Of a stretch of 64,000 nucleotides of DNA, positions 52,480 through 55,005 are shown one piece after another. This DNA comes from Escherichia coli. Lineage in GTDB: Bacteria > Pseudomonadota > Gammaproteobacteria > Enterobacterales > Enterobacteriaceae. The notes under the pieces were generated by a model. That model had not been told where the DNA came from, ran no database searches, and saw only the letters and a program-made list of their open reading frames with translations. Positions within the stretch are counted from its first letter, which is position 1. Each line of letters begins with the position of its first letter. The translations under genes were made by a program, and so were the position numbers. Where the stretch lies: the NCBI RefSeq assembly GCF_041886205.1, contig NZ_CP169029.1. One strand, 5' to 3'.

Positions 52480-53037
52480 AATTTTTAAAAACCACGGGTT
52501 AGCAATATAATAATCCCATGTAAAATCAATAATTTTCTCAATGGCTTTTTGTGGCTGGTTAACCAGATGATTAACAAACGCACCGATACCGACAGCGTAG
52601 AATAATTACATACCGCACAACAAGAATGTATGGTGTAAGGCGTGGAAGTCATTTTCTTCCCGGGTGCATCGTTATATCCGTGATGAGCGATTTTTGATAT
52701 TAATATCTTTCACCATCCGCTATTTTTACTACTTCAGAAAACAAACTTATTTTTATTAATATCGATTCTTTTTCTGTAAGCATTTAACTACGATATTTAT
52801 AAAAACATTAAACAGGTAACATTACAATGACATTACCAACGACTATTTATTCATTTCGTGCATATTTACCTCGTTTTTCGTCCACCGACAAACCAGTAAA
52901 ATTAAAATTTCATGAATATGCCCGTGCTACATTACTGCCAAATCGTGGAAGAGATCATAATTGCGATGGCAGACGTACTGTTGTGAACCGCCCCGGGAAT
53001 CCTGGAGACTAAACTTCCTGAGAAAGAGGTAAACAGG

Positions 53038-53364
53038 ATGACTAAAAATACTCGTTTTTCCCCCGAAGTCCGTCAACGGGCAGTCCGTATGGTTCTGGAA
53101 AGTCAGAGCGAATATGACTCACAATGGGCGACAATTTGTTCCATTGCTCCAAAGATTGGCTGTACGCCGGAGACTCTGCGTGTCTGGGTTCGCCAGCATG
53201 AGCGGGATACCGGGGGCGGTGATGGAGGGCTCACCACCGCTGAACGTCAGCGTCTGAAAGAGCTGGAACGTGAAAATCGTGAACTGCGCCGCAGTAACGA
53301 TATCCTTCGCCAGGCTTCCGCTTATTTTGCGAAGGCGGAGTTCGACCGCCTCTGGAAAAAATGA
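53038..53364 (+). CDS. IS629 OrfA (IS3-family transposase N-terminal HTH protein)
   Basis: 108-aa [44 protein letters not shown]..., recognised as IS629/IS1203 orfA. Confidence 0.9.
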
Positions 53365-54251
53365 TGCCACTGCTGGATAAGCTGCGTGAGCAGTACGGGG
53401 TCGGACCGCTATGCAGCGAACTGCATATTGCCCCGTCAACGTATTACCACTGTCAGCAACAGCGACATCATCCGGATAAACGCAGTGCCCGTGCGCAGCG
53501 CGATGACTGGCTGAAGAAAGAGATACAGCGCGTATACGATGAAAATCACAAGGTATACGGTGTGCGTAAAGTCTGGCGTCAGTTGTTACGGGAAGGTATC
53601 AGAGTGGCCAGATGCACTGTGGCACGTCTCATGGCGGTTATGGGACTTGCCGGTGTTCTCCGGGGTAAAAAGGTCCGTACGACCATCAGCCGGAAAGCCG
53701 TTGCCGCAGGCGACCGCGTAAACCGTCAGTTCGTGGCAGAACGACCTGACCAGCTGTGGGTGGCTGATTTTACTTACGTCAGCACATGGCGGGGCTTCGT
53801 CTATGTGGCGTTCATCATTGATGTGTTTGCCGGATACATCGTGGGGTGGCGGGTCTCATCGTCCATGGAAACGACATTCGTGCTGGATGCACTGGAGCAG
53901 GCGTTATGGGCCCGTCGACCGTCCGGCACGGTCCATCACAGTGATAAAGGTTCTCAGTATGTATCGCTGGCCTACACACAGCGGCTTAAGGAAGCCGGAT
54001 TACTGGCATCAACAGGAAGTACAGGCGACTCGTATGACAACGCGATGGCGGAGAGCATCAATGGTCTTTACAAAGCGGAGGTAATACACCGTAAGAGCTG
54101 GAAAAACCGTGCAGAAGTGGAACTGGCCACACTCACGTGGGTGGACTGGTATAACAATCGACGATTGCTGGAAAGGCTGGGCCATACTCCTCCGGCAGAA
54201 GCAGAAAAAGCTTATTATGCTTCCATCGGAAACGATGATCTGGCAGCCTGA
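53361..54251 (+). CDS. IS629 OrfB (DDE integrase/transposase catalytic domain)
   Basis: 296-aa ORF in the -1 frame relative to orfA; IS3-family catalytic region (…HSDKGSQY…). Confidence 0.9.
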
Positions 54252-55005
54252 GTTCACAGATAAAACACTCTCCAGGAAACCCGGGGCGGTTCAGTTGAGA
54301 TCCACAAACTAGATCTCTCAGACTGGCAAGCATTCAATAAACTAGCGATGGCGTGTAATGCTTACGATGGAATAACAATGAATGGTGATAATTCTTTTGG
54401 ATGGAACCATGAAGCTACATTAGATAATATTCACGCCCAGAAATACAATAAAGCTTACGCGGGTGCGAGGTTAACCGCAGAACTGAAATATTTATTGCAA
54501 GATGTCGAATCCTTCGAACCCAACAGTAAATACACAATACATGAGGTTGTTTTGGGACCTGGTTATGGTACTCCAGATTATACCGGCCAAACGATAGGAT
54601 ACGTTGTAACCCTTCCTGCCCAAATGCCTAATTGCTGGTCATCTGAACTACCAACAATCGATCTTTATATCGACCAACTTCGCACTGTTACAGGCGTTTC
54701 TAATGCCCTCGGATTCATCATTGCTGCATTGCTAAACGCGTATTCTGATTTACCCCATGATTTGAAAATTGGTCTACGTTCCTTATCAAATTCAGCAGCA
54801 ATCTACTCGGGTTTGGGTTTCGAGCGAGTGCCGCAGGACCGAGACATAAGGAGTGATCGTATGCATCTAACGCCAGCAAACCATCCTGACTTATGGACAC
54901 AAGAGAATGGTGAATGGATCTACTTGCGAAACTAATACCTGACGAAAAATAGAAAGCAAAACGCCGACCAATGGTCGGCGTTTTTACGTCTCGTTGAATA
55001 ACGAA

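Follow-up and report, generated by a model that had tools for sequence, protein, structure and literature searches.

The window (the whole analysed stretch, 64,000 nucleotides of one strand of Escherichia coli contig NZ_CP169029.1) harbors, within the DUF2686 gene yjfZ, a complete IS3-family insertion sequence that by sequence comparison is IS629. It splits the gene into a 5' and a 3' fragment, with a copy of the tetranucleotide GTTG at each junction, while directly upstream a second insertion sequence (IS609, IS200/IS605-family) lies in the TetR-family gene ytfA. The features of the locus are given below in window coordinates, with the evidence for each in brackets.

50405-50512 and 52285-52506: fragments of ytfA
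50556-51764, - strand: IS609 tnpB, intact, predicted gene for a TnpB-type RNA-guided endonuclease
51772-52197, + strand: IS609 tnpA fragment, C-terminally truncated
52827-52983, + strand: yjfZ 5' fragment, codons 1-52 and base 1 of codon 53 (Pfam DUF2686, E 5.7e-17; the same as the 5' end of yjfZ in strain C9)
52980-52983, no strand: target-site duplication, left copy GTTG (empty-site comparison)
52984-54293, + strand: complete IS629 (IS3 family), 1310 bp (identity to other copies)
52984-53008, + strand: left inverted repeat (IRL), 25 bp (a 25-bp IR is annotated at the same position in Sakai record AP000400)
53038-53364, + strand: orfA, 108 aa, predicted HTH DNA-binding protein (Pfam HTH_Tnp_1, NCBIfam)
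53319-53435, + strand: predicted frameshift-stimulating ALIL pseudoknot (Rfam RF01497)
53325-53329, + strand: TTTTG (U_UUU_G), likely the main -1 frameshift site (5 nt upstream of stem 1)
53334-53350, + strand: ALIL stem-loop 1 (Rfam RF01497)
53356-53361, + strand: A6 run directly before the orfA stop, a possible secondary shift site (sequence)
53361-54251, + strand: orfB, 296 aa, DDE catalytic domain (Pfam rve, NCBIfam transpos_IS3)
54269-54293, - strand: right inverted repeat (IRR), 25 bp (IR alignment, element-end comparison)
54294-54297, no strand: target-site duplication, right copy GTTG (empty-site comparison)
54298-54935, + strand: yjfZ 3' fragment, remainder of codon 53 to the stop (Pfam DUF2686, E 3.3e-124; identical to C9)

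The element measures exactly 1310 bp and is bounded by TGAACCGCCCCGGG and CCCGGGGCGGTTCA (outermost bases TGAACC...GGTTCA), which form 25-bp terminal inverted repeats that agree at 23 of 25 positions; the first 14 are perfect (14/14), for which the chance probability at fixed positions is ~4e-9. OrfA was recognized by Pfam as HTH_Tnp_1 (7.4e-13) and by NCBIfam as the N-terminal part of an IS3 transposase, while OrfB carries the rve domain (8e-28) together with HTH_21 and scores 314.6 bits against NCBIfam transpos_IS3 (cut-off 160). The DDE triad of OrfB is formed by D136, D195 and E231, with K238 seven residues past the glutamate. The frame of orfB (-1 relative to orfA) is open from 53298, and the orfB start overlaps the orfA stop within the ATGA at 53361-53364. 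Membership in the IS3 family is thus apparent from the size (within 1.2-1.5 kb), the imperfect inverted repeats, the 5'-TG...CA-3' ends, the succession of an HTH-bearing OrfA in phase 0 and a DDE (rve) OrfB in phase -1, the lysine (K/R in the family) seven residues after the catalytic E, and a target-site duplication in the range of 3-5 bp (here the 4-bp GTTG, established with two empty sites).

The preliminary description had placed the element after codon 52 of yjfZ, which is near-exact; the true point of insertion follows nucleotide 157 of the coding sequence (the first base of codon 53), and the duplicated target comprises nucleotides 154-157. Its further claim, that removal of the element and of one flanking GTTG restores a 264-codon yjfZ exactly, was borne out: the restored locus is identical at 1001/1001 bp to the uninterrupted yjfZ of E. 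coli C9 (NZ_CP010129.1), and the restored coding sequence equals the C9 yjfZ CDS, annotated as DUF2686 protein WP_001491466.1. Against strain wlxctx60, a second empty site, the left and the right GTTG fall on one and the same set of four reference bases, and a 4-bp target-site duplication is thereby proven. Two other readings of the junctions were considered. A 1-bp duplication would likewise leave an open frame (265 codons) and was ruled out by the empty-site comparison, while a 3-bp duplication (GTT or TTG) plus an extra base is at odds with the exact ends (TGAACC...GGTTCA) shared by five independent copies of the element, and is also disfavored by a separate draft contig that reproduces the left junction including the G. 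The target duplications of the four comparator copies are 3 bp long (ATC, TAC, CCC and ATA), whereas that of the window copy is 4 bp, the rarer outcome; duplications of 3-4 bp are described for IS629 (PMC3271280).

Taken together, the two fragments of yjfZ span positions 17-70 and 72-285 of the 285-position DUF2686 profile (PF10887). The ORF of the 5' fragment reads into the element and stops at 53012 (61 aa), and the longest ORF left in the 3' part begins at an internal ATG at 54348 (195 aa). Such an arrangement suggests that the insertion inactivated yjfZ; as the function of the gene is not known, no phenotype can be inferred from its disruption.

Two further stretches of the window deserve mention in their own right. 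The IS609 insertion in ytfA (~50513-52284) is common to 1699 complete E. coli genomes and absent from K-12; an insertion so widely shared is an old one, unlike that of IS629. At the beginning of the window (1-3700) the sequence diverges from wlxctx60 (97.8% identity at 1-1590, 86% with indels at 1644-2478, and clustered mismatches up to ~3700) in a region overlapping a neighbor of argF that the wlxctx60 annotation lists as a frameshifted DNA-binding protein. The segment has the look of one that is variable or has recombined.

Between 28999 and 43719 the comparison with wlxctx60 shows 24 insertions in the window and 0 deletions, each insertion being a tandem duplication of 1-4 bp. These micro-duplications recur every ~595, 560, 523 and 506 bp from one block to the next (a few positions being skipped), and the 24 kb compared around them contain only 4 mismatches. 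They frameshift or fragment chpB, tamB, tamA, msrA, paeA, ytfJ, cysQ and cpdB, and one of them frameshifts the essential ppa at codon 67, for which reason they were rejected as real biology. A broken essential gene makes them probable assembly artefacts, most likely (we infer) of consensus or polishing at window boundaries in a long-read assembly. In the comparison with wlxctx60 none was present at 2555-28998 or at 43720-64000. They do not touch the IS629 finding, and they stand as a warning on the quality of the source assembly.

Many chromosomes and plasmids of E. coli contain the same 1310 bp with 100% identity, and an exact match to OrfB is present among the proteins of CFT073. For the two copies on S. 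flexneri pCP301 that its depositors labelled IS629 ORF1/ORF2, full-length identity to the window element is 98.9% and 98.5%, and it rises to 99.2-99.6% for copies on other plasmids of S. flexneri. Lower values, 96.0-96.3%, were obtained for the copies annotated as IS629 in O157:H7 Sakai and in related Stx phages (the annotated Sakai mobile_element, with the same ends, 96.2%), a kind of copy that PGAP now files under 'IS1203 family', and an O55:H7 copy gave 95.3%. The copy of O55:H7 DEC5E reads TAATG for TGATG, by which the first orfB ATG is altered and the A-run and TTTTG are kept. All five independent copies (that of the window and four comparators) have identical boundaries. Under the ISfinder convention, elements with >95% nucleotide identity are regarded as one IS, and the full-length identities to annotated IS629 (96.2% for Sakai, 98.5-98.9% for pCP301) lie above this limit. 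The type element of IS629 comes from S. sonnei; our assignment is based on the annotated Shigella and Sakai copies and on NCBI product names rather than on the type sequence X51586. On these sequence grounds the element is IS629 in its Shigella/non-O157 variant, not the O157 (IS1203) type. The name and the completeness given to it beforehand are thus confirmed by the identity to Shigella plasmid copies (98.5-99.6%), by an NCBI product of the IS629 family, and by intact inverted repeats and ORFs.

The Rfam family RF01497 (ALIL) matches positions 53319-53435 over its full length (1-117) with 120.2 bits (gathering score 50; E 4e-32), both stem-loops and their complementary loops being present. 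Stem 1 (53334-53350) begins 5 nt past TTTTG (53325-53329), and the apical loop GUUCG can form 5 bp with CGGAC (within 53402-53407, in the internal loop of stem-loop 2). In the family consensus the pairing is GCUCGA/UCGAGC, versus GUUCG/CGGAC in the window element; both sides of the loop differ from the consensus yet remain complementary, which indicates conservation of the pairing. The full-length, high-scoring match, the loop-loop complementarity and the 5-nt distance of stem 1 from U_UUU_G are shared with the IS3411/ALIL group (RF01497; PMC5009743), IS3411 being likened here through the family model and its description. On an identical copy of the element, PGAP marks both an ALIL feature and a 'programmed frameshift'. 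We consider U_UUU_G with the ALIL pseudoknot to be most likely the main programmed -1 site, with A6 as a motif that may at most serve as a secondary one.

In the preliminary description, frameshifting had been assigned to a slippery site at the A6 run. The run does exist (53356-53361), and its case as the principal programmed -1 site draws on A_AAA being a valid single-tRNA slip motif, on the orfA stop codon that directly follows, and on the A6-shift fusion being represented by a RefSeq protein. The title of a 2006 paper by Chen & Hu, 'Two frameshift products...IS629', fits two active sites and suggests that both may be used; the paper reportedly presents the T4G and A-run motifs as both active. 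Against the A6 run speaks its position past stem 1 and ~36 nt short of stem-loop 2, with no stimulatory structure at the usual distance of 5-9 nt, as well as the Rfam consensus, which retains UAUUUUGC in upper case and has GAAgaaa instead of an A-run at the A6 position. The protein collection points the same way, the TTTTG-shift fusion being found on 379 contigs versus 1 for the A6-shift fusion, while TTTTG and A6 are both invariant among close isoforms, whose alignments do not discriminate between them. Hence, what stands of the earlier claim is the presence of the run, while its role as the main shift site is unlikely. Tied to family nomenclature is the possibility that the element should be filed as another isoform (IS3411 or IS1203) and not as IS629 proper, which we regard as quite improbable. 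The sub-types of IS629 are 4-5% apart, with IS1203 and IS3411 described as isoforms at about that difference (Rump et al., PMC3271280), and the ALIL pseudoknot was characterized on IS3411 (PMC5009743). Most RefSeq copies of the element are, moreover, labelled only 'IS3 family transposase'. The copies that PGAP names 'IS1203 family', however, are only 96.2-96.3% identical to the window element, as against 98.5-98.9% for the Shigella copies annotated as IS629, and the exact A6-shift OrfAB product (WP_085959878.1) bears the name 'IS3-like element IS629 family transposase'. Under the >95% convention IS629, IS1203 and IS3411 would in any case all be one IS, and we retain the name IS629.

The age of the insertion can be approached through its distribution and through the divergence at the locus. 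A query spanning both junctions (at least 80% coverage) recovered the insertion of IS629 in yjfZ from 0/5426 complete E. coli genomes, and the closest genomes, those of C9, 6EVA and wlxctx60 (99.8-100% identity), have yjfZ intact. The 61-aa ORF specific to the junction is recorded from a single contig (AASIYH020000116.1, 930 bp, from the draft GCA_012373595.2), which matches window positions 52108-53037 with 0 mismatches and therefore shares the left junction. For the 195-aa ORF downstream of the element the protein look-up returned no exact record, and the right junction was seen in the window assembly only. Compared with wlxctx60, the left flank (~3300 bp) has 1 mismatch and the right flank (9707 bp) has 2, both aligning without gaps (3 mismatches in ~13 kb). 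With the ORFs, inverted repeats and duplication intact and no divergence from other copies of the element, a recent event is well supported, in agreement with the clean, recent transposition proposed at the outset; this dating by sequence draws on zero divergence and rarity rather than on a dated phylogeny.

Three other accounts of the insertion were weighed. That it is an old, lineage-fixed marker appears very improbable: the neighboring IS609 shows that the locus can retain insertion sequences for long, whereas none of the 5426 complete genomes, relatives at 99.8-100% among them, has the IS629 insertion, and the element matches many other copies at 100% and has lost none of its ORFs, repeats or flanking duplication. 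An adaptive loss of yjfZ in this lineage, or expression of the 195-aa C-terminal fragment driven by the element, would turn the insertion into a functional change instead of neutral damage; for a single event in one lineage, we find this extremely doubtful. The notion that a flawed long-read assembly misplaced an IS copy into yjfZ is barely credible, even though the 24 regular micro-duplications, with their broken ppa, show that the same assembly contains non-biological errors. A precise 4-bp target duplication sits at the exact ends of the element, the separate draft contig AASIYH020000116.1 carries the identical left junction, and no micro-duplications occur within 9 kb upstream of the element or from there downstream to the end of the window.

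The strain background had been read from the element itself, IS629 being taken as a pointer to O157:H7-like or Shigella-like strains. This could not be upheld, as the element was matched in 4263 of the 5426 complete E. coli genomes, 3042 (56%) having one that spans 80% or more of its length, and the O157 variant is only ~96% identical. An element found in most complete genomes has no diagnostic value for a background of O157 or Shigella. The flanks of the window are 99.8-100% identical to ordinary, small, commensal-type E. coli genomes of 4.5-4.65 Mb (from bear, human and cow), on account of which Shigella was rejected as the source. The non-K-12 origin, proposed in the same statement, proved correct: the restored YjfZ and that of K-12 are identical at 252/264 residues, the ytfA of K-12 is without the IS609 found in the window, and K-12 is reported to lack IS629. 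Judged by sequence, the host is a commensal-type, non-K-12 lineage of E. coli.

The anatomy, element identity, empty-site comparison and rarity were observed or computed, and we infer the transposase activity, the shift site and any phenotype. By analogy with the IS3 family, a programmed -1 frameshift of the ribosome (U_UUU_G at 53325-53329 being its most likely site and ALIL its stimulator, with A6 perhaps as a secondary site) would join orfA and orfB into an OrfAB DDE transposase, which would bind the 25-bp inverted repeats and copy the element out as a circle (copy-out-paste-in). The circle would then be pasted into a staggered cut, the repair of which would generate a duplication of 3-4 bp. 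The host would be left with a 61-aa ORF in which a truncated YjfZ runs on into the IS, and with a 3' fragment that lacks a promoter.

With IS629 of Shigella (pCP301 and other S. flexneri plasmids) the window element shares the length of 1310 bp, the ends, the orfA/orfB layout and up to 99.6% identity; each of the pCP301 copies differs from it by 11-16 substitutions and a 4-bp deletion, the window copy being the intact one. IS629 of O157:H7 Sakai (IS1203v in the literature) has the same 1310 bp, the same positions of the 25-bp IRs and an identical frameshift region, but is only 96.0-96.3% identical and made a 3-bp duplication as opposed to 4 bp here. For O157 IS629, IEE-promoted excision has been reported, and the behavior of that family is likened to that of the window element. 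The IS911/IS3 models likewise have TG...CA ends, make short duplications and encode an OrfA together with an OrfAB DDE transposase fused by frameshifting; they differ in the slippery motif (A_AAA_AAG or A_AAA_G) and in the stimulator, and are distant in sequence from the IS629 of the window.

We are thus highly confident in the reading by which a functional-looking IS629 of the Shigella/non-O157 variant recently transposed into codon 53 of yjfZ, duplicated GTTG and probably inactivated the gene in a commensal-type, non-K-12 host. It is an ordinary, strain-specific event of an already-known kind, and its biological weight is small (one further IS629 knockout of a gene without known function). 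As in the collections searched it is shared only with the draft GCA_012373595.2, the insertion may serve as a lineage or typing marker. For the IS629 group, the analysis brings a correction of the frameshift signal, which would consist of U_UUU_G and the ALIL pseudoknot, and not simply of the A-run at the overlap of orfA and orfB.
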